A stretch of DNA of 64,000 bases from an uncultured archaeon. Its GTDB lineage: Archaea; Aenigmatarchaeota; Aenigmatarchaeia; GW2011-AR5. The DNA lies in NCBI GenBank assembly GCA_964599215.1, contig CAZRDV010000002.1, forward strand, positions 36,119 through 100,118. Direction: 5' to 3'. Positions 21,198-46,835 of this stretch are shown here, piece by piece (position 1 is the first letter of the stretch; each line of letters opens with the position of its first letter). The notes beneath the pieces were generated by a model, which did not search any database, had not been told where the DNA came from, and saw only the letters and a list, made by a program, of their open reading frames with translations. The translations under genes and the position numbers were made by a program.

Positions 21198-21270
21198 AAC
21201 ATCGCCTTTTATCAGATAAACAGTATTTCTATCCCTTTTAAAATTTTAAATAATTTAGTTACCTAAGCAT

Positions 21271-21359
21271 GATACCGTCTAAATGACGATGGTTGTCTGT
21301 TGACAACCATCTTTCATGGGTTATTGACAACAGTCAATAACCCTTATTTAGACGGTATC
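21271..21359. repeat. 89-nt palindromic triple-stem element, copy A
   Basis: The outer 14-bp stem GATACCGTCTAAAT/ATTTAGACGGTATC encloses two hairpins, GATGGTTGTC-TGTT-GACAACCATC (21288-21311) and GGGTTATTGAC-AACA-GTCAATAACCC (21318-21343). It is 83/89 identical to the reverse complement of 41851-41939. Confidence 0.9.
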
Positions 21360-21422
21360 CAAACATGATACCGTAAAAGCAACTTAAATAATTTTGTTAA
21401 AACTATTTAGTAGGTGAATCCT

Positions 21423-22683: not shown

Positions 22684-22706
22684 GATACCGTTATTTAGAC
22701 GGTATC
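22684..22706. repeat. Mini-copy of the repeat-family arm (hairpin GATACCGT-TATTTAG-ACGGTATC)
   Basis: GATACCGTTATTTAGACGGTATC contains the full right arm TTATTTAGACGGTATC of the 89-nt element plus 8 nt of the left arm, and lacks the internal hairpins. Confidence 0.8.
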
Positions 22707-22784
22707 AACAAAAAATCAAAGGAATTAAAGCTTAAAAACTTAAAGTTAGAATAGTTTTTGATTGTCTTTCGTAGATGTGATTTC

Positions 22785-36938: not shown

Positions 36939-38099
36939 CTATTTTCCTGATTTTATAGAAATTATGTCTCCGTCTTTTAGTTCATAATGAGCAGAAACAT
37001 GCTTGCCTGTCCTGGCATCGACAGCTGCTATGAATTTCTTGCCTATATCCTCGTGCACACGATAGGCAAGATCATGTGCAGTTGAGCCCCTTTTCATCAG
37101 GAAGGCATCCGGCAATACGTTCCCTTTTTTGTCGCTGTATTTATGTTCATTTTCAACAGGATAAACAACTATCATGTCCAGAAGCTCGAAAACGGCTGTG
37201 TCTATTATTTTTTGGACACCAGTTGAACCATGCCTTTTGAGAACCTTTTCCTTGATGAACAATAAAGCATCCTCATGCTTCTTGTCCATATCTCCGGTTA
37301 TTTTGAAGTCAGAATCGCCTGGCATGTAGTTAATCAGACCCTTTTCAGCTGCGCGCCTCAGGGCAAGCTCTGATTCTGCTGAGCATGCAACAGCTTGGAA
37401 TTCTTCTTTCAGTTTTTTGTATATATCGTCTGCTCCTTGCACATCTATCTTATTTGCAGCAATTATTATTGGTTTGCTCTTTTCTCTTAGTATACGGATG
37501 AAGTTTAGTAGCTCGTCTTCTTGAGAGCTGCTGCTAATGCCTGTTTCGTTTACTGCGTCTTCTATCTCCTCAATTCTTATGCCTAAGCCAGTGAGTTGTT
37601 TAGAAATCATTTCATTAAGATGGTTGCCCTTTTTAACCTGGTTCCAGTTTCTCATAAGAATTCCGAGCATCCAGTAATCGATTTCTTTGAAAAAGAATTC
37701 TATATCCTCTTTCGGATTATGGGTGCCTGGCTCTACTGCATTTCCATTGCTGTCTGTACTGCCTGATATGTCAACAACATTTATCAGTACTGTTGCCTCC
37801 ATTATTTCCGAAAGGAACTGGTTTCCTAGGCCTCGGCCAAGGTGTGCATCAGGCACAAGCCCTGCTATGTCAACAGCCTTAACAGGGACAAATCGCACAC
37901 TGTCTATACATTTTGAGTTCACAGGATTGCATTTCACACCGAGCTGCTTGCACGGGCACTCTTTTCTTACGTAGGTAACCCCCTTATTGGGTTCGATTGT
38001 TGTAAAAACACGGTTGCTTATCTCCGCATCCACGAGGGTGGAAGCAGAGAAAAAGGTGGTTTTCCCTGTATTTGTCTTGCCGGCAATGCCAATTAACAT
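36939..38099 (-). CDS. Obg-like GTPase/ATPase with a C-terminal TGS domain (YchF/OLA1-like)
   Basis: MLIGIAGKTNTGKTTFF (P-loop), DIAGLV (G3); C-terminal ...HYELKDGDIISI. ATG at 38099; the track start at 38108 is GTG. Confidence 0.75.
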   Translation of the reverse strand: MLIGIAGKTNTGKTTFFSASTLVDAEISNRVFTTIEPNKGVTYVRKECPCKQLGVKCNPVNSKCIDSVRFVPVKAVDIAGLVPDAHLGRGLGNQFLSEIMEATVLINVVDISGSTDSNGNAVEPGTHNPKEDIEFFFKEIDYWMLGILMRNWNQVKKGNHLNEMISKQLTGLGIRIEEIEDAVNETGISSSSQEDELLNFIRILREKSKPIIIAANKIDVQGADDIYKKLKEEFQAVACSAESELALRRAAEKGLINYMPGDSDFKITGDMDKKHEDALLFIKEKVLKRHGSTGVQKIIDTAVFELLDMIVVYPVENEHKYSDKKGNVLPDAFLMKRGSTAHDLAYRVHEDIGKKFIAAVDARTGKHVSAHYELKDGDIISIKSGK

Positions 38100-38162
38100 T
38101 ATTATCACTTTCTATGAAATACTTATAAAATTAATAATAAATGAATAATAGATTGTGATAAC

Positions 38163-39882: not shown

Positions 39883-40305
39883 TCAGTATCGTCTGCCCAT
39901 GCGCATTTCCATGTTCTTTAGTCTTTCGTTGATTGTCTCTGTCTGGCTTCTTATTGCTGACAGCTGGGCTTCTATTATGTTTAGCCTGTCCCTCAGCTCG
40001 TAGTTGCCCTCTCCTCCTGGTGTCGGCTCATCCATGGATAGCGGTTCCCTTCCAAAGCTCGGTTCTTCAAGCCTGCTGCTTAATCCTGGTTCAGCAAAAC
40101 GCGGTGGTTCAGGTTGCTCTCCGAACCTTCTTCTTGGTGGCTCTGGAAGTTCTGGAAGATCCGGAACCTCTTGCATTCGACCTTCTTCCCTTTCAGGATA
40201 GCCTCTTTCAGGATATTCGTTTTCACTAAGAACATGGCTTCTTATGTCACCGAGCTCTTCTTTTCTGCCCAGGAACCTGTTTTTTATTGCGCTGAATATT
40301 CCCAT
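39883..40305 (-). CDS. Hypothetical protein: N-terminal amphipathic helix, P/E-rich linker, C-terminal coiled coil
   Basis: MGIFSAIKNRFLGRK..., then EVPDLPELPEPPRRRFGEQPEPPRFAEPG..., then ...LRDRLNIIEAQLSAIRSQTETINERLKNMEMRM. No family recognised. Confidence 0.6.
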   Translation of the reverse strand: MGIFSAIKNRFLGRKEELGDIRSHVLSENEYPERGYPEREEGRMQEVPDLPELPEPPRRRFGEQPEPPRFAEPGLSSRLEEPSFGREPLSMDEPTPGGEGNYELRDRLNIIEAQLSAIRSQTETINERLKNMEMRMGRRY

Positions 40306-40348
40306 GTCATCACTTCATATATTATTGATTCTGCGGTTTAAATTATTT

Positions 40349-40846
40349 TTACGGCACCTGCTCCTCCTTGGGTATGCCGAGTATATCAAGTATCCTTTCC
40401 TTCAGCCTGTATACGTTATCCTTGCCGAAGTCTATGTATTTCCTTCTCTGCTTGTAATAGAACATGTAGTTGAAAAACCACCAGAAGCTTTTCTGTATGA
40501 AATTAGTATACTCGTACTTTGTCTCAACATTTCCTTTCAGAACAATCGCGATCCAACCCATCTTGTCCTTGCTGGACTGGGCTCCCTGTGCCCTTATTTT
40601 TATCCTGGTGTTTGTCCAGTTGTCCTCGCCACGTTTGCCTCTCCATATACCGTAGAACTCCCTGGGTTCTGTTGTAACATCCCACCTTATATCAGTCTCA
40701 AAGGTGTCCTTGCCGCTTATCTTCATAACCTCTATTAGTAGCTTTTGAAACAGTGTACAGACTTTGAACGGCTCCTTTCCCTGGAATTTTACCTCTAGGA
40801 AATCCCTTGGCGCAAGCAGGTCATCTGCAATAGTAATCTCTGGCAT
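40349..40846 (-). CDS. Hypothetical protein, paralog 1 of a tandem pair
   Basis: 165 aa. Shares Trp-containing blocks and ...FFNYMFYYKQRRKYIDFGKD... with the adjacent gene (there ...FWHRMFYQHRRMEFLAMGKE...). Confidence 0.65.
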   Translation of the reverse strand: MPEITIADDLLAPRDFLEVKFQGKEPFKVCTLFQKLLIEVMKISGKDTFETDIRWDVTTEPREFYGIWRGKRGEDNWTNTRIKIRAQGAQSSKDKMGWIAIVLKGNVETKYEYTNFIQKSFWWFFNYMFYYKQRRKYIDFGKDNVYRLKERILDILGIPKEEQVP

Positions 40847-40855
40847 TCATACACC

Positions 40856-41365
40856 CTATGCTGTTTTCAATGTCTCTGCAAAGGATTTTATTGCCCTTTC
40901 AAAATTTATTACAAGCTCCTTTCCCATAGCAAGGAATTCCATCCTTCTATGCTGATAGAACATCCTGTGCCAGAACCTTCTGAACATCTCGTATATAATA
41001 TTCTGTTGCCATATCGTATCCTGGGGGTATTCGGTTATAAGCCTTGGCCTTATCCTGACAAACAGCCTGCCCTCGCCCTCGGTGGAGGTTCCCCTCAGGT
41101 CTATCTCAATGTTGATATAAGAGAACATGTCCAGTATTTTCGTGACTTCCCAGAGGATGTCAAAGCGTTCTGCTCCCTTGGCCTTTTCCCAGGTGTAATC
41201 CTTCTCCTGGATGTAGGCATCAGGCACATTGAATACAGTTCTTATCAACTCATTTATCTTTGGGTAGAAACGTTCCGGGTTCCTGCCCACGTAGCTTATT
41301 TTTATCTCCTTTACTGGCTCGAAGATATAGTCCCATATCAATAATTTCGTCCTAGCCCATACCAT
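40856..41365 (-). CDS. Hypothetical protein, paralog 2 of a tandem pair
   Basis: 169 aa. Alignable by eye to 40349-40846: YTWEK/IRWDV, RFDILWEVTK/EFYGIWRGKR, INIEIDLRG/TRIKIRAQG. Confidence 0.65.
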   Translation of the reverse strand: MVWARTKLLIWDYIFEPVKEIKISYVGRNPERFYPKINELIRTVFNVPDAYIQEKDYTWEKAKGAERFDILWEVTKILDMFSYINIEIDLRGTSTEGEGRLFVRIRPRLITEYPQDTIWQQNIIYEMFRRFWHRMFYQHRRMEFLAMGKELVINFERAIKSFAETLKTA

Positions 41366-41483
41366 GGATCAGCACCGATGTTATTATACTTGTTCAGGTC
41401 TACTATATATTTATATCTCCGTTTATAAATTATTATAATAAGCCTTTGTGTGCCGTTCAAAAAAAATTATAAAGTGCTCTGAA

Positions 41484-41816
41484 ATGATCGAGATAATACT
41501 GGCTGCTGTGCTGATTGCATTCGGAATCCTGTCAATATACTTTTCAATAGAATCCGGGACCAAGGACCCGAAGCTTATGTTCATACTGTTTCTCGGGGCA
41601 GCCTGCATAGTAGCTGGGGCATGGCTGCTTATATCAAGCCTGACGCTCATGCTTATAGTGAAAAAGCTGGCTGGGCTGGCACTGGCAGGTATTGGCCTGT
41701 TCATTGTAATAGGGTTCCCTGATGTTAAGGATTATCAGAGTTTTGATATGAGCAAGGCAGGAGTCTTTATCGGGCTTATTCTACTTGTAATAGGCATCTA
41801 TCTGCTGTTTTTCTAG
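41484..41816 (+). CDS. Small 4-TM membrane protein, hypothetical
   Basis: MIEIILAAVLIAFGILSIYF... with four hydrophobic helices. ATG at 41484; the track start at 41448 is GTG. Confidence 0.55.
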   Translation: MIEIILAAVLIAFGILSIYFSIESGTKDPKLMFILFLGAACIVAGAWLLISSLTLMLIVKKLAGLALAGIGLFIVIGFPDVKDYQSFDMSKAGVFIGLILLVIGIYLLFF

Positions 41817-41825
41817 GCGTATCAC

Positions 41826-41850
41826 TTATTTAGAGGGTATCAAAAGAAAT
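41826..41850. repeat. Satellite copy of the repeat-family right arm plus flank
   Basis: TTATTTAGAGGGTATCAAAAGAAAT matches TTATTTAGACGGTGTCAAAAGAAAT at 41924-41948 at 23/25 positions. The two form direct repeats bracketing the core of copy B. Confidence 0.8.
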
Positions 41851-41939
41851 GACACCGTCTAAATAAGGGCTATTGACTGTTGTCAATAGCCCATGAAAGA
41901 TGGTTGTCAATAGACAACCATCGTTATTTAGACGGTGTC
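41851..41939. repeat. 89-nt palindromic triple-stem element, copy B (core inverted relative to copy A)
   Basis: GACACCGTCTAAAT-AA-[GGGCTATTGAC-TGTT-GTCAATAGCCC]-ATGAAA-[GATGGTTGTC-AATA-GACAACCATC]-GTT-ATTTAGACGGTGTC. It ends 49 nt upstream of the ATG at 41989. Confidence 0.9.
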
Positions 41940-41988
41940 AAAAGAAATCTTAGTTAACTTAATATATCAGGAGGGATAAAAGAGAATT

Positions 41989-43626
41989 ATGCTGGAGATT
42001 CTTCTAGTCATTTTAGTAGCTTTTATCGTGGTTATCGTATACCTGTTGTTAAAAAAGCCTGGAGAAGGGGAGAAGGGCATAGCCCCGTTTATCCTGGATG
42101 ATGAAAATTTTGCAAGGAACAGGGTAACAGGAGAGGCAATTGACCAAAGAATAGAGAAATGGTGCTTCGGGCCAAGGGCAGGGCATTCCCTGATTGCTTT
42201 TCCAAGGGAGACGCAGGTTGAGATAGACTTTACAGCGCCCCCAGGTGCTATATCAAAGTTATATTACTCCCTGTGCTTCCAGCTCAGGAAATGGGAATAC
42301 CAGGTCCAGAAGGGTGATGAGTGGATTGAGGTATCCCCGTCCCACAGGGCCTATTACGAGCTAACGCATAAGCAGAAGGAAGAGTTAGAGGTAAGGATAA
42401 AGTCAGGCCTTGCATCTGCTGCACAGGCTGTCGCAGACCTGGAATTAATAAAGCATGACCAGAGAAAATACAAAGAGTTTCTGGAATACTTCGGTTATGA
42501 GTTCACAGGCAATGAATTCGAGGAAACCGGCAATCGGGATGAGCATTCGATAAAAGCCATGTTCGTTGACCTGGTGGATGTCCATACAGGCGAGGGCATA
42601 TCCATGAGATCCATAGTTACAAGATGGCCTACCCTGATAACAGATTTCATCAGACTGGATGATGAAACTGATATTGACAAGGTCAAGAATAAAATGAATG
42701 TATCCAATGCAGAAGCTGTTGTCCTGGTAACAAAGAACAAGCTCTATCATCAGTGGAAGAAGATGTTTGAGCCGCAGCTGAAAGAACGCTACAGGAGGGT
42801 AAGCGAGCTTGTCAAAAGCAGGGAGGAATCAGTCAAGCAATACAGAAACTGGCTTGCTCCTTTCATAGCAAGACATAAGATGCTGGAGGAGGGTATGGGA
42901 AACGCTGGCAGACGAGGCATGCTCAGAACAACATTTGTACTGCACGGCGGGCAGGCAACCTCAATGAGCAAGGTAACAATATGGGCATGGAGGGAGCTAA
43001 CACTGCCGGAATTCCACAAGGGTGGCGGTGAAAGGCTTGGAAGGGAGCTGGGCGAGGGCGTTGTTAAATGCGACGACGACTGGACAAAGGAGAATCTTAT
43101 ATTCCATCCAAAGCACGGGCTGGTTGTAAAATATCCGTGGATAGACGACAAATGGGTTACAGACCAAAAGGACTGGATGATGCAAAAAAATTGGCTGGAA
43201 GAGAACAAGATGTATTATTCTTTCCTGCCTATAACCCTGAACAAAATCAATATAAGAACGCCAGACGGCGATGAGCTGGAAGACGGGGTCTTTGATGTAC
43301 AGGCTGCACTCATGAGCCAGAATGTTATGTTTGTTAAATTATTGGAGATGAGGGCGATGCAGGAGGATCTTAACCGTTATGTTGATGGCCTTATCGGCGT
43401 AGCAAAAGAGCTGCCTCAAGAGGAGGTAAAGAAAGGCAGGAAAACTCTGGAGCCTGCAAAGAACTTCTTCGCATACTTCTCAATGCCGTTCCAGTTCCTC
43501 AAGAGAGGTCCTTATGAAAAGGATTTCTACGACAGGATCTCTCTGTTCTGGTGCAGGCAGATGGCCACACTCAGGTATGCTCCTGTAGTTGGTTTCCTAA
43601 AAAGCAAGATGGGAATGGGGATGTAG
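41989..43626 (+). CDS. Hypothetical membrane-anchored protein (545 aa)
   Basis: One N-terminal TM (MLEILLVILVAFIVVIVYLLL), then about 520 aa of Trp/Lys-rich soluble sequence. No family recognised. Its stop TAG abuts the next ATG. Confidence 0.7.
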   Translation: MLEILLVILVAFIVVIVYLLLKKPGEGEKGIAPFILDDENFARNRVTGEAIDQRIEKWCFGPRAGHSLIAFPRETQVEIDFTAPPGAISKLYYSLCFQLRKWEYQVQKGDEWIEVSPSHRAYYELTHKQKEELEVRIKSGLASAAQAVADLELIKHDQRKYKEFLEYFGYEFTGNEFEETGNRDEHSIKAMFVDLVDVHTGEGISMRSIVTRWPTLITDFIRLDDETDIDKVKNKMNVSNAEAVVLVTKNKLYHQWKKMFEPQLKERYRRVSELVKSREESVKQYRNWLAPFIARHKMLEEGMGNAGRRGMLRTTFVLHGGQATSMSKVTIWAWRELTLPEFHKGGGERLGRELGEGVVKCDDDWTKENLIFHPKHGLVVKYPWIDDKWVTDQKDWMMQKNWLEENKMYYSFLPITLNKINIRTPDGDELEDGVFDVQAALMSQNVMFVKLLEMRAMQEDLNRYVDGLIGVAKELPQEEVKKGRKTLEPAKNFFAYFSMPFQFLKRGPYEKDFYDRISLFWCRQMATLRYAPVVGFLKSKMGMGM

Positions 43627-45294
43627 ATGCCGTATACAGTAGGTGTTTCAAGCGGTTGGTGGAAGATAGACAGACCGCCTGATCTGCTGGGCTTGGCAAC
43701 AAAGGTCGGATCATTTGGCGGCACAGCTGGCGTGCAGTTCATACAGGCAGATTTAGACACGACGAGCGAGTTCTTTGAGCCAAGGCTAAAGGAGCAGATA
43801 AATAGGATAAGGCATAAAATGGGCATGGATTTCGGCCTGCATGCTGAGGTCGGCGAGCTGATGGCCCTGGAAAGCGCAGAGAGGAGGTTATGGGACCAGT
43901 CGCATATAAGATTGGTCGAAACAGTCAAGTACTCTGCTGAGCTCGGTATGAAATATATCAACATACACCTGTCGAACAAACCACAATTACTGTTTCTAGA
44001 GGCACAGTACAGGGTAACTGGTTATTTCTATCCTGTTGTAAGTTATGATGGAAGGCCGATATGGACAATATGTGAAGAGAATGAAAAGGTGAAAGAGGCT
44101 GCAAAAAAACATATCCGTGGTGTTGAAAGGGTTGTCTTTGATGATAACCAAGATGGTTATGAAAAAATCCTTGAATGGCAATCGAGTATTGAAGAAAGGG
44201 AGGTCAGAAAAGAGCTTGATGAGCTAGAATCAAGTCCTGAGTATGAAACTGCTAAAGGATCTGGGGACCTTTCTCTACAAAGGGTCTTACAGGCCCAGGC
44301 AACTGAGAGGGGAAAGGGAAATGCAAGGTCTATTGTCAATAGGGAGCTGCCAGATCAGGTATACTATGCATGGAAAGAATCTGTAAATGCACGCTATAAC
44401 CTTGATACAGCAGAAATAGCTGCATATACAATAGTCGCACGTTATATGAAGGAAACAGGCGACCCCTTATGGAGCAATATATGCAAGAACGGGGATGTAG
44501 AACGTACTTACGTTGATCATCATGCAGAGTTCAACGCAGCACTTGCTGCCAAATACCTGGAGGGTCATCTGACTGTAAAGAACAACGAATACAATAAAAA
44601 ATACCTGAACGGCATGAGCGTTTTAGAGTGGTTAGAAAAGCATAAGATAATACTCGCACTTGAAATACCTGAGGCGCACGAGGGTTATGAAGGCCTTCTA
44701 AGGCTTATAGATCCTCTGCAGGGGCATGTCCTGATAAGGAAACTCAGGTCTCCAATATTGAAACTATGCATAGATTTCGAGCACATGCTTTCCCATAAGC
44801 TGAATGTAGAGAATATGATAAACAAACTGCCTTCAGGCGGGGGCAAGGATATAATTGCCCTGCACGTAGGCAAGCCAATACCGTACTTCGGTTCTGCGCA
44901 TACGCCCATACCCATCGGGTCCAGGGCACAGGAAATAGTATACCAGTGGATATTTGCCTTAAGGAAAAAGGGCTTCAGAGACGGTTACATAATCTATGAA
45001 AGAGGGGGTGGAAAAACTGCCTGGGATGTTATGCAGAATGTGGTCTGGGTAATGAGGCAGATGGTAAAATACCTTGAACAGGATGTTCCTTTTGATAAAC
45101 TGCCACCGGAGTTCTACGGAATATCAGAGCAGACCAAGGAGACCTTTGCACGGCAGCTGGTCACTGTAAGAGACCATGCCTGGGACCCGTTAGAAGGCGT
45201 ACTAGAAATACCAGAGGAGAAGCATACCTTCCTCAGCAAGGTTGCTGTTGAAAAGGGCAAGAGGGAGGAATGGGAAAAGAGGAAGCTCAGGTAG
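43627..45294 (+). CDS. Xylose-isomerase-like TIM-barrel (AP endonuclease 2 superfamily) protein with an insertion of about 200 aa
   Basis: N-terminal ...MGMDFGLHAEVGELM...AELGMKYINIHLS and C-terminal ...ILALEIPEAH...KLCIDFEHML...IIALHVGK...SAHTPIPIGS...GYIIYERGG follow the barrel's metal-ligand pattern. The middle third has no counterpart. Confidence 0.6.
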   Translation: MPYTVGVSSGWWKIDRPPDLLGLATKVGSFGGTAGVQFIQADLDTTSEFFEPRLKEQINRIRHKMGMDFGLHAEVGELMALESAERRLWDQSHIRLVETVKYSAELGMKYINIHLSNKPQLLFLEAQYRVTGYFYPVVSYDGRPIWTICEENEKVKEAAKKHIRGVERVVFDDNQDGYEKILEWQSSIEEREVRKELDELESSPEYETAKGSGDLSLQRVLQAQATERGKGNARSIVNRELPDQVYYAWKESVNARYNLDTAEIAAYTIVARYMKETGDPLWSNICKNGDVERTYVDHHAEFNAALAAKYLEGHLTVKNNEYNKKYLNGMSVLEWLEKHKIILALEIPEAHEGYEGLLRLIDPLQGHVLIRKLRSPILKLCIDFEHMLSHKLNVENMINKLPSGGGKDIIALHVGKPIPYFGSAHTPIPIGSRAQEIVYQWIFALRKKGFRDGYIIYERGGGKTAWDVMQNVVWVMRQMVKYLEQDVPFDKLPPEFYGISEQTKETFARQLVTVRDHAWDPLEGVLEIPEEKHTFLSKVAVEKGKREEWEKRKLR

Positions 45295-45380
45295 TTCATA
45301 TCTCCTGAAGAACAGGGTTACACGCGGCCTGCAATGCATATGTTTATTAAGTTTTTGGTTCAACAACTTACAGTGATACA

Positions 45381-46577
45381 ATGCAAGAAAAGAAAGCCAG
45401 TGATACAGACAAAAAGAAGATGGAAAAACTCAGGAAGAAGCAGATTGATATTGCCAACAAGTTCAAGGACGAGGTCCTGAAGAAATACAAGAATGTCGTG
45501 AAGGCAGTTGTATTGTTCGGCTCTCTTATAAGAGGGGACTTCCACAGCAAGAGTGATATTGACCTGCTGGTTGTCATAGACGACACCCTCGCAAGATTTA
45601 CGCCAGAGATGAAGGAAGAGTTTGACGAGAGGATTTACAGAATCGGCAAGTCTATAGATGAAAATATAATAGTTCAGCCGGCATGGACACTGACTGAGTT
45701 CTGGGAGATGGCCAGGATTGGTCATCCGCTGCTCTATACCATAGTAAGGGACGGCTGGGCCCTGTATGATACTGGTTTCTTCATACCTGTAAGGAAGCTG
45801 CTCGAAGCAGGCAGGATTCCAACCACGCTGGAGGCTGTTGAGAAATTCATGGAAACAGCTCCACAGAAGATAAACCGCGTGGAAACAGCCAAGCTCTACA
45901 TGATTGCAGAGGATTTATACTATGCCATGCTTAACTCATCCCAAGCAGTGCTGATGTATCTGGGGCAGAACCCGCCATCGCCAAAGCACACGCCACTGGA
46001 GGTAAAGGAGCATCTTATTACTGCCAACCTTCTGGAGGCAGAGTACCTGAGGGACCTTGAAAGCGTTATAGAATTCAGGAAAAAGGTGGAGCACAAAGAG
46101 ATTAAGGAAATTACTGGCCATGATTTAGACGCAATGATAGACAAGGCAAAGCGCTTTGTCAACCGCATGGAGCAGTTGCTGATGCAGCTGCAGAAAAAGA
46201 AGAAGGAGAATATCGTCCAGAAAAATTATGAAGTAATGATAAAGGCAGCTGTTGCCACTCTAAAGAAGATAGACAAATTACCGCCAGACCCGAAGGACCT
46301 GCCAAAGGCTATAAAGGACTACCTTATAGGACCTGGCAAGATAGACCCGTATTATGGCGAGGTTCTCAAGAAGGTTGTCACAATGAGGAAGCTTCTTGAT
46401 GAGGACAAGATAAACGAGGTCCCGCAAAGGGACATAGAACTTACCAGGGAGTACGTAAGAAGGTTTGTCCGCGACCTGGCCCCTGTTCTAGAGGCAAAAG
46501 AGAAAAAGGCTTGTAAAAAACCAGCTAAAAAGCCGAAAAAGGCAGCAGCCAGAAAAAAGAAAAAAGGGAAGCGATAG
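45381..46577 (+). CDS. Minimal nucleotidyltransferase (MNT) fused to HEPN-like helical domains, polybasic tail
   Basis: VVLFGSLIRGDFHSKSDIDLLVVID (GS-x9-D-x-D NTase motif). The downstream helical region has an Rx4H-like RKKVEH. The C-terminus is KKACKKPAKKPKKAAARKKKKGKR. Confidence 0.7.
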   Translation: MQEKKASDTDKKKMEKLRKKQIDIANKFKDEVLKKYKNVVKAVVLFGSLIRGDFHSKSDIDLLVVIDDTLARFTPEMKEEFDERIYRIGKSIDENIIVQPAWTLTEFWEMARIGHPLLYTIVRDGWALYDTGFFIPVRKLLEAGRIPTTLEAVEKFMETAPQKINRVETAKLYMIAEDLYYAMLNSSQAVLMYLGQNPPSPKHTPLEVKEHLITANLLEAEYLRDLESVIEFRKKVEHKEIKEITGHDLDAMIDKAKRFVNRMEQLLMQLQKKKKENIVQKNYEVMIKAAVATLKKIDKLPPDPKDLPKAIKDYLIGPGKIDPYYGEVLKKVVTMRKLLDEDKINEVPQRDIELTREYVRRFVRDLAPVLEAKEKKACKKPAKKPKKAAARKKKKGKR

Positions 46578-46625
46578 CTTTTTAAGCTTTTCACTACTGA
46601 TTGATGATAGCTTTTGGTGGTAGCA

Positions 46626-46835
46626 ATGACGTTCGATTTTCACGTTCACGGCCTCTGGATACTTGGAGCCGTATTCATGTTCTTAGGCGGAATGATAGCA
46701 GGCAACATTGAATGGGTAGAGGGCACAACAGAGTTCAGCTTCGGATTCTCGGTATTGCTGGCATTTGTCATGTTCCTTGTAGCAGGCCTTTGCTGGATAT
46801 CATCTGCTGTGAACGCAAGGCAGGAAATGAGATAG
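46626..46835 (+). CDS. Small 2-TM membrane protein, hypothetical
   Basis: MTFDFHVHGLWILGAVFMFLGGMIAG...FSVLLAFVMFLVAGLCWI. ATG at 46626; the track start at 46614 is TTG. Confidence 0.45.
   Translation: MTFDFHVHGLWILGAVFMFLGGMIAGNIEWVEGTTEFSFGFSVLLAFVMFLVAGLCWISSAVNARQEMR

Follow-up and report, generated by a model that had tools for sequence, protein, structure and literature searches.

What does a block of genes without evident family names do in a stretch of archaeal DNA that is otherwise dense in housekeeping genes? The question is raised by positions 39,883 to 46,835 of a 64,000-nucleotide stretch of contig CAZRDV010000002.1 (the whole stretch is called the window here), which comes from an uncultured member of the Aenigmatarchaeota, a phylum of tiny symbiotic DPANN archaea. 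The block holds eight open reading frames (ORFs), designated g1 to g8 in the order of their coordinates, with g1 to g3 on the minus strand and g4 to g8 on the plus strand. An earlier note, made from the letters of the window, had described these genes as uncharacterised, had found their mix reminiscent of envelope-associated or conflict/defence systems, and had kept in reserve that they may form a core system particular to the lineage instead of an island. The comparison reported here strongly supports this fallback: the block represents a housekeeping cluster, inherited vertically and confined to Aenigmatarchaeota, in which seven genes, arranged as two divergent operons (g3-g2-g1 and g4-g5-g6-g7), co-occur, keep their order, pack tightly and co-diverge across the phylum.

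Conservation of the Cluster in Aenigmatarchaeota

Around 90 related loci, from Aenigmatarchaeota genomes and from metagenomes, were compared; ORFs were called in all of them and iterated profiles were built for each family. Six loci, found by scanning genomes with g5, come from Aenigmatarchaeota metagenome-assembled genomes, and four of these loci hold all eight genes in the order of the window, between a GTPase gene and the gene for ribosomal protein S3Ae. A metagenome scan with the g6 profile contributed 80 further loci at 30-63% identity. The order g1<g2<g3< followed by >g4>g5>g6>g7 is kept nearly everywhere in this set, even at a g6 identity of 30%. The g5 gene adjoins g6 in 61 of the 67 informative loci, g2 and g3 are both found in 48/52, a small transmembrane protein (g4) is encoded directly upstream of g5 in 50/52, and g7 lies within 4 kb downstream of g6 in 41/46. 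Several of the exceptions to this order have gaps of fitting size, and are therefore probably detection failures. The g5 and g6 genes are closely packed: of 65 loci, 43 leave no more than 30 nt between the two, and in 24 they overlap or abut; in the window, the g6 start codon abuts the g5 stop. Identity to the window proteins also co-varies across loci, that of g6 correlating with g7 (rho 0.71), g5 (0.60) and g3 (0.54). Median identity in the near clade is 75% for g7 and 65% for g3, versus 59% for the GTPase and 52% for S3Ae, so that the cluster is conserved at least as well as the housekeeping genes that flank it.

The neighbourhood of the core varies. In one locus (L007) it sits between TFIIB and L35Ae, and in another (L009) it precedes Trm1. 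In L091, a near-complete 875-kb Aenigmatarchaeota genome (CP066684.1; 10001-14593), everything from the paralog-sized ORFs through g7 lies on a single strand. Inverted variants occur in L006, L013, L014 and L037, and in these, as in the rearranged L091, g3/g2 still stand beside g5. The neighbours are translation and RNA genes, with S3Ae, L35Ae, eIF5A and the CCA enzyme close by and Trm1 immediately after g7 in both L009 and L091. A YGR210-like GTPase gene lies downstream of g1 on the same strand in 22 of 37 loci, in some with a gap to g1 of only 25-60 nt; it may thus belong to the linked set as an eighth member. In the window the YGR210-like Obg-family GTPase is encoded farther upstream of the block (36939-38108), with ABCE1 inserted between it and g1. 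The core is counted as seven genes; g8 and the linkage to S3Ae are confined to the window's own clade. The g8 gene, encoding a protein with two transmembrane helices, lies between g7 and S3Ae in 16 loci only, all of that clade, and is a clade-specific accessory outside the phylum-wide core.

The phyletic range of the cluster is narrow. Database searches returned 291 homologs of g5, 135 of g6 and 200 of g3 (the last at 61-91% identity); those with a name are labelled Aenigmatarchaeota or plain "archaeon", with the exception of one g3 match labelled Woesearchaeota. No Pfam domain was found on the homologs of g5 or g3. When the g5 profile was run exhaustively with HMMER against 1.84 billion representative proteins, only 239 matched at E ≤ 0.001; these all look like members or fragments of the g5 family, and every named protein sampled among them belongs to Aenigmatarchaeota.

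None of the signs of a mobile region accompanies the block. Its GC content is 0.42-0.48, against 0.40-0.46 in the flanks, without a step, and no tRNA gene lies within ±10 kb, in agreement with the earlier observations of no composition shift and no tRNA boundary. A library scan detected no recombinase domain among the eight proteins, PHROGs gave no match of note for them, and a scan of viral contigs returned no copy of the cluster. A genomic island or mobile element was rejected on these grounds and on that of conserved synteny. Taken together, the conserved synteny, the co-divergence, the high identity and the lack of viral copies contradict a defence or mobile island and fit a vertically inherited functional unit.

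Some lineages carry inserts between g6 and g7 that encode nucleotide-handling proteins, namely a nucleoside phosphorylase (PNP_UDP_1), a phosphopantetheine adenylyltransferase, a dephospho-CoA kinase or a second nucleotidyltransferase (NTase). In several relatives, bacterial-type coaD (phosphopantetheine adenylyltransferase) and coaE (dephospho-CoA kinase) genes, whose products carry out the final two steps of coenzyme A (CoA) synthesis, are inserted here on the opposite strand (L011:11716-12243(-), L012:13128-13769(-)). The inserts of other lineages encode PNP_UDP_1, an S-adenosylmethionine (SAM) methyltransferase or RibD_C. In the distant clade, an extra NTase gene of ~275 aa separates g6 from the g7 ortholog (L061:11964-12791); equivalents were seen in L009, L035, L042-L044, L050-L056, L060-L063, L066, L067, L072, L077, L082, L083 and L088.

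The g6 Protein: A Remodelled Endonuclease IV-Type Barrel

The earlier description of g6 as a TIM barrel with an insertion proved accurate. PF01261 (AP_endonuc_2) matches residues 321-459 only, scoring 31.7 bits (cutoff 31.1), and a conserved insertion of ~195 aa (residues ~129-321), which begins as a coiled coil, separates the strand with H114 from the strand with E346. The same Pfam domain is found on most g6 homologs and reaches 55.6 bits in the L091 ortholog. For a barrel-core profile, residues 129-321 were cut out before a search of the whole PDB, which found MJ1311 (3wqo) at E 8e-5, Thermotoga maritima endonuclease IV at 1.9e-3 and APN1 at 9e-3, with Escherichia coli Nfo (~0.1) and then a sugar epimerase (0.21) at lower ranks. 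Against E. coli Nfo alone, as a single target, the core scores 13 bits (E 2.4e-6). MJ1311 is listed as a predicted Nfo homolog of Methanocaldococcus jannaschii, and the nine catalytic residues are described in the same source (PMC2770678).

The nine metal-ligand positions were checked in E. coli Nfo itself (H69, H109, E145, D179, H182, H216, D229, H231 and E261). The direct alignment pairs H114, E346, D383 and H386 of g6 with H109, E145, D179 and H182 of Nfo, the alignment with MJ1311 adds H72, H413 and H425 as ligand counterparts, and E458 is matched to Nfo E261 by position only. All 77 sequences of the family share H72, H114, E346, D383, E385, H413, H425 and E458, and 74 of them have H386. 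By these alignments, eight of the nine endonuclease-IV/MJ1311-type metal ligands have a predicted counterpart in g6, seven of these being invariant and one nearly so, and g6 is best described as a derived metalloenzyme of that type. It shares the xylose-isomerase-like TIM barrel with endonuclease IV and MJ1311, the best solved relatives of its barrel core. Unlike the compact ~285-aa barrel of endonuclease IV, however, g6 contains the ~195-aa insertion with invariant residues of its own (E263, W282, Y310 and H314 in the same 77 sequences), has no equivalent of D229, has an additional invariant Glu (E385) beside H386, is only marginally similar overall and is always paired with g5.

In one locus, a canonical MJ1311-like TIM-barrel gene of 320 aa stands immediately beside g6 (L042:11792-12754(-); 3wqo at E 1.4e-13). 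The presence of this separate gene suggests that g6 arose by duplication, with the L042 gene as a possible parent, and it speaks against the view that g6 is simply "the" Nfo of these genomes. A glutaredoxin-fold N-terminal domain on the L091 ortholog was considered as a redox clue and dropped, since the domain has no CxxC.

The g7 Protein: A Fusion of Nucleotidyltransferase and HEPN Domains

The g7 protein combines a minimal Pol-beta type NTase (MNT), a HEPN-like domain with the motif R233-x4-H238 and a second helical domain, followed by a Lys-rich C-terminal tail that is an addition of the window lineage. NTP_transf_2 matches at 7.9e-11, accompanied by a Polbeta match and a weak HepT-like match. 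G47-S48 and D59-x-D61, which form the NTase motif, are invariant, as is R233, and H238 is at least 90% conserved within the motif FRKxVEHK. The NTP_transf_2 match and the conserved R233-x4-H238 bear out the earlier call of an MNT-HEPN fusion, and g7 holds an intact Pol-beta-type NTase site together with a HEPN R-x4-H motif. Judged by spacing, this motif would lie where the HEPN R-x4-6-H falls, in the first helical domain; the second helical domain also has weak HepT-like matches, without an R-x4-H motif.

Several known systems resemble g7 in part. An MNT-HEPN fusion that is unusually conserved and "typically in house-keeping context" has been reported in DPANN archaea (Makarova, Wolf and Koonin 2019, PMC6393860). 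Its cluster cls.004259, which includes NEQ050, is likened to g7 here by description, on fusion, host group, housekeeping context and high conservation, whereas the linkage to g4-g5-g6 and to g3-g2-g1 does not appear in that description (PMC6393860). With the HepT/MntA type VII toxin-antitoxin (TA) system, g7 shares the GS...DxD NTase motif and the HEPN R-x4-H, and it matches the MntA model at 1.2e-7, which is below that model's cutoff. HepT/MntA is, by contrast, a patchy and mobile two-gene dyad, whereas g7 is a single fused, slow-evolving gene with an extra helical domain and phylum-wide synteny. The closest solved relative of the NTase is kanamycin nucleotidyltransferase (profile E 1e-8), which has an NTase and a helical domain (the HEPN-like KNTase_C) in the same order; the match spans ~60 residues of the NTase core, and g7 differs in being larger, in keeping R-x4-H and in having no resistance-gene context. 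A role as the CCA-adding enzyme was rejected, as a canonical tRNA_NucTransf2 gene is found elsewhere in L007 and L009.

The g5 and g4 Proteins

The AlphaFold2 model of g5 (pLDDT 76.8) consists of two very long helices (120-167 and 240-304) and several beta sheets. Conservation is strongest in an all-alpha core at ~176-346, which contains D194, D197, H199, R212-W213-P214 and D219-F220 together with a conserved face of the long helix (K249, W256, F260, R267, R278 and Y285). Foldseek gave zero matches to this model at E ≤ 0.001 in the PDB and BFVD; matches to BAR-PH, coiled-coil and levivirus maturation proteins have TM-scores of at most 0.17 and are meaningless. Profile searches of the PDB, with narrow or broad alignments, detected no sequence relatives of g5, and the idea that it is a duplicated g3-like domain found no support (hhalign probability 0.5%). 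The L091 ortholog is a short form of 409 aa that keeps the all-alpha core, and that of L086 (1022-2716) has an inserted CxxC...CxxC zinc-ribbon-like segment (RKYCTKCKKYSPSGVIVCSKCGS).

The earlier note had described g4 as a protein with four transmembrane helices and the 545-aa g5 protein as membrane-anchored; only for g4 is a membrane location consistent among relatives. The N-terminal transmembrane helix of g5 (41989-42060) is real in the window, but apart from the window only its closest relative, L011 (8286-8350), has it. Of the remaining 62 orthologs, 59 are predicted to have no transmembrane segment and three have only weak internal hydrophobic segments (5/64 flagged in total), so that anchoring as a property of the g5 family was rejected. 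The small g4 hairpin is, on the other hand, consistently a membrane protein. Its description as a protein with four transmembrane helices holds in the window, and the clade of the window and L011 shares this form; the conserved unit of the family is a C-terminal hairpin of two such helices with the motif GFPD..DYQ....G..IG, and most relatives have this hairpin, usually as a protein of ~54 aa whose gene often overlaps the g5 start. A weak DUF308 match was also recorded for g4. Because orthologs begin MVLEII..., which corresponds to an internal ATG at 41484 (MIEIILAAVLIAFG), the listed GTG start (41448) is probably wrong and the ATG at 41484 probably the true start.

The g2, g3 and g1 Proteins

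The pair that the earlier note had called paralogs 1 and 2 is related indeed: g2 and g3 find each other by BLASTP at E 1e-7, with 21% identity over 155 aa, and their iterated profiles merge, giving 115 matches in 59 loci, or about two per locus. No transmembrane helix was predicted in g2. In the AlphaFold2 model of g3 (pLDDT 84.7), two strands are followed by a helix (30-45), four antiparallel strands and an aromatic/basic C-terminal helix of 46 residues. The top Foldseek matches are helix-grip proteins of the SRPBCC/START/Bet v 1/PYL kind, with E values of 4e-4 to 1e-2 and TM-scores of only 0.2-0.37; the five matches at E ≤ 1e-3 are all SRPBCC-like, with TM-scores of 0.17-0.36. In its predicted antiparallel sheet, helix and long C-terminal helix g3, like its paralog g2, resembles SRPBCC/START/Bet v 1 proteins. 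It differs from them in its low TM-scores, in the lack of a sequence relation (there are no sequence relatives in the PDB and no Pfam SRPBCC match) and in the C-terminal helix, which is modelled as extended. For the paralogs g2 and g3 the predicted fold is weakly helix-grip-like.

The g1 gene, the last of the minus-strand operon, encodes a protein in which a linker rich in Pro and Glu joins a short N-terminal stretch that is basic and amphipathic (MGIFSAIKNRFLGRK) to a coiled coil at the C-terminus, as foreseen when it was first described as an amphipathic/coiled-coil protein. A similar three-part small protein (67-150 aa) follows g2 in most loci with two paralogs, including those of the distant clade.

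Proposed Function and Alternatives

The reading preferred here, with a probability of roughly 0.35, is that the cluster encodes a housekeeping complex that processes nucleic-acid phosphodiester ends. The products would assemble as one complex on such ends, those of RNA being somewhat likelier than those of DNA. The HEPN domain of g7 would cut or grip the substrate RNA, the metal centre of g6 would strip a 3′-phosphate, a cyclic phosphate or an abasic-type blocking group, and the g7 NTase would then extend the freed 3′-OH or, alternatively, nucleotidylate a partner protein and so regulate it. The long-helix-rich g5, presumably coupled to g6 in translation, could act as the scaffold and the g4 hairpin could tether the assembly at the membrane, with the helix-grip-like pair g2/g3 and the coiled-coil g1 as putative accessory or adaptor subunits. 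Both 3′-phosphatase and 3′-diesterase activities are established for endonuclease IV. The translation/RNA gene neighbourhood and the nucleotide-handling inserts are consistent with action on nucleic-acid ends. A functional analogy is offered by bacterial LigD, which has 3′-phosphoesterase and polymerase domains, in that the proposed complex would heal a 3′ end with a metal phosphoesterase and extend it with an NTase; it is an analogy only, as there is no homology and the cluster contains no ligase.

Several points weigh against such a complex. The physical association of its members is read from gene order, and the canonical placement of R233-x4-H238 from sequence spacing and not from structure. 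The similarity of g6 to endonuclease IV is seen at profile level only, and is faint before the insertion is removed: hhalign gives full-length g6 a probability of ~1% over a local match of 30 columns, and the pairwise Smith-Waterman comparison with E. coli Nfo was not significant, the relation emerging only without the insertion. At the position of D229, g6 reads G-S/T-A-H425. The AP_endonuc_2 superfamily includes sugar isomerases and small-molecule phosphodiesterases such as CbiR, and the MJ1311-like neighbour of g6 in L042 weakly matches sugar epimerases and the cobamide phosphodiesterase CbiR. PF1383, an Nfo-like archaeal protein, has neither AP (apurinic/apyrimidinic) endonuclease nor 3′-diesterase activity (PMC2770678), which means that homology alone does not predict the activity of g6. 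Where HEPN is fused to MNT, the HEPN domain is usually catalytically dead and binds the substrate (PMC3710099), so that g7 would be an exception if its R-x4-H is truly at the catalytic position. Finally, g2/g3 and, faintly, g5 resemble helix-grip folds that bind lipids or other ligands, and combined with the membrane protein g4 this makes a small-molecule or lipid role at least as natural for these components.

The cluster as a whole is rather unlikely to be a membrane-associated small-molecule or lipid module. In such a module g2/g3, and perhaps g5, would carry a hydrophobic ligand, g6 would be a phosphodiesterase or isomerase acting on head groups or cofactors, and g7 would nucleotidylate a small-molecule hydroxyl, all at a membrane provided for by g4 and the amphipathic g1, in the uptake or remodelling of host-derived lipids or cofactors by a DPANN symbiont. 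CbiR acts on cobamides, and kanamycin nucleotidyltransferase, the closest solved relative of the g7 NTase, does nucleotidylate a small-molecule hydroxyl. SRPBCC/START/Bet v 1/PYL/CoxG proteins predominate among the Foldseek matches of g3, and faint matches of g5 are to Ups1/PRELID1, START and Bet v 1; the TM-scores are, however, low for g3 (0.2-0.37) and meaningless for g5 (≤ 0.15), and g3 has no Pfam SRPBCC match. A membrane setting is favoured by g4, always a membrane protein, by the basic amphipathic N-terminus of g1 and by the aromatic/basic C-terminal helix of g3, and a small-molecule substrate by the weak matches of the L042 neighbour to sugar epimerases and CbiR, by the CoA-salvage genes coaD and coaE inserted in the cluster in some lineages, and by the substrate-binding habit of MNT-fused HEPN domains mentioned above. 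Against these stand the H386/H425 pair of the third metal site kept by g6 and the R-x4-H motif retained by g7, and no lipid-biosynthesis or transport gene is found among the conserved neighbours. g6 also keeps H72 and H114, presumably a mark of endonuclease IV that the superfamily's sugar epimerases lack. Isoelectric points were not discriminating.

It is unlikely that the genes are unrelated lineage-specific housekeeping genes, left adjacent through low rearrangement of small genomes, with g6 serving base-excision repair as the phylum's divergent AP endonuclease, g7 representing the MNT-HEPN protein found across DPANN, and the others in separate roles. The flanking GTPase and S3Ae genes are also syntenic in many loci, the unrelated coaD, coaE, PNP, methyltransferase and RibD_C genes insert between g6 and g7 with the cluster unbroken, and the MNT-HEPN fusion has been reported DPANN-wide (PMC6393860). 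Yet the core is intact where the flanks differ fully (TFIIB/L35Ae in L007, another context again in L091), g3/g2 stay beside g5 through inversions, g4, g5 and g6 overlap or abut, and g5, g6 and g3 share one narrow phyletic range. Very improbable is a conflict or TA system in which a HEPN RNase toxin is controlled by the fused MNT and accompanied by membrane and nuclease effectors. It would draw on the PADLOC candidate models matched by the NTase domain of g7 (PDC-S09 at 5.1e-15, PDC-M05A at 9.8e-7 and PDC-M70A), on the MNT-HEPN architecture, which is typical of type VII TA modules (PMC3710099), and on a very weak SLATT/2TM-effector match of g4 (E 0.004-0.02). The PDC models are unvalidated candidates (PMC12988326), and a match to them says nothing about the function of g7; the remaining six proteins match no defence model. 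MNT and HEPN are fused in g7 and do not form a two-gene dyad, g7 is more conserved than ribosomal protein S3Ae, and the distribution of the cluster in the phylum is universal instead of patchy, with its synteny kept. The envelope or conflict/defence flavour that the earlier note had sensed thus comes down to generic NTase models on g7, in a cluster with phylum-wide synteny, without viral copies, a GC shift, tRNA genes, notable phage-family matches or other signs of mobility, and its distribution largely refutes a defence role.

Significance

DPANN archaea represent a large and almost uncultured share of microbial diversity, and the cluster is a concrete, testable target for biology specific to Aenigmatarchaeota. 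Very few phylum-specific conserved genes are known in DPANN (PMC6393860). The families of g5, g2/g3 and g1 have no detected relatives outside the phylum, apart from the single g3 match labelled Woesearchaeota. The assembly matches no known system and no description of it was found in the literature; it is new at the level of the system, g6 and g7 being members of known superfamilies. The cluster pairs a heavily remodelled endonuclease-IV-type enzyme with a domesticated MNT-HEPN protein, and parts of it exceed ribosomal protein conservation. It also gives the puzzling "housekeeping" MNT-HEPN fusion of DPANN a genomic context, and hence a handle. That g7, a phylum-wide gene in a housekeeping context, receives the PDC-S09 label means that automated censuses of archaeal defence may over-count.

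The boldest interpretation, and an improbable one, is a phylum-defining, membrane-tethered machine that takes in and re-tailors host-derived macromolecules (nucleic acids or lipids), with g4 as the hairpin, g5 as the scaffold, g6 as a trinuclear-metal phosphoesterase, g7 as the NTase-HEPN component and g2/g3/g1 as helix-grip and coiled-coil adaptors. If true, such a machine, made mostly of folds without known relatives, would be a molecular foundation of DPANN symbiosis.

Layout of the Block and the Palindromic Element

All eight ORFs of the earlier description were found, on the same strands and with the same coordinates (Table 1), and its identification of the flanks as ABCE1/RLI and ribosomal protein S3Ae was borne out. 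The divergent intergenic region contains TATA-like TTTATA(T/A)A boxes pointing in both directions, which are taken to be putative archaeal promoters. The eight proteins were run against Pfam, NCBIfam, PADLOC and PHROGs; in these four libraries g1, g2, g3 and g5 gave zero matches, and g4 and g8 sub-threshold noise alone. Of the eight, these libraries name g6 and g7 alone, and both at the superfamily level only (AP_endonuc_2 TIM barrel and NTP_transf_2, respectively). An Rfam scan of the block gave zero matches.

Table 1. Features of the block, in window coordinates.
Feature	Coordinates	Strand	Length	Location	Source
g1	39883-40305	(-)	140 aa		ORF
g2	40349-40846	(-)	165 aa		ORF
g3	40856-41365	(-)	169 aa		ORF
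Divergent intergenic region, AT-rich	41366-41447		82 bp	between both operons	read from sequence
g4	41448-41816	(+)	122 aa		ORF
Palindromic repeat element	41820-41948			between g4 and g5	
g5	41989-43626	(+)	545 aa		ORF
g6	43627-45294	(+)	555 aa		ORF
g7	45381-46577	(+)	398 aa		ORF
g8	46614-46835	(+)	73 aa		ORF

The plus-strand set also includes the palindromic element that had been listed as copy B, and it was found in that place. It consists of 17-nt terminal inverted repeats (TGAYACCGTCTAAATAA) flanking two inner hairpins, and folds into a Y shape at -63.3 kcal/mol (z = -13). Copy A lies at 21270-21360, in reversed orientation relative to copy B, and positions 22691-22707 hold a short terminal-repeat hairpin only. 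None of the related loci in other genomes has the element. It was therefore rejected as a component of the conserved system and is regarded as a species-specific insertion between g4 and g5. Outside the window it occurs only in L092, a contig that encodes an identical g5 protein; this suggests a species-specific element resembling a miniature inverted-repeat transposable element (MITE). The g4 and g5 genes, which the palindrome splits in the window, overlap or nearly abut in most relatives.

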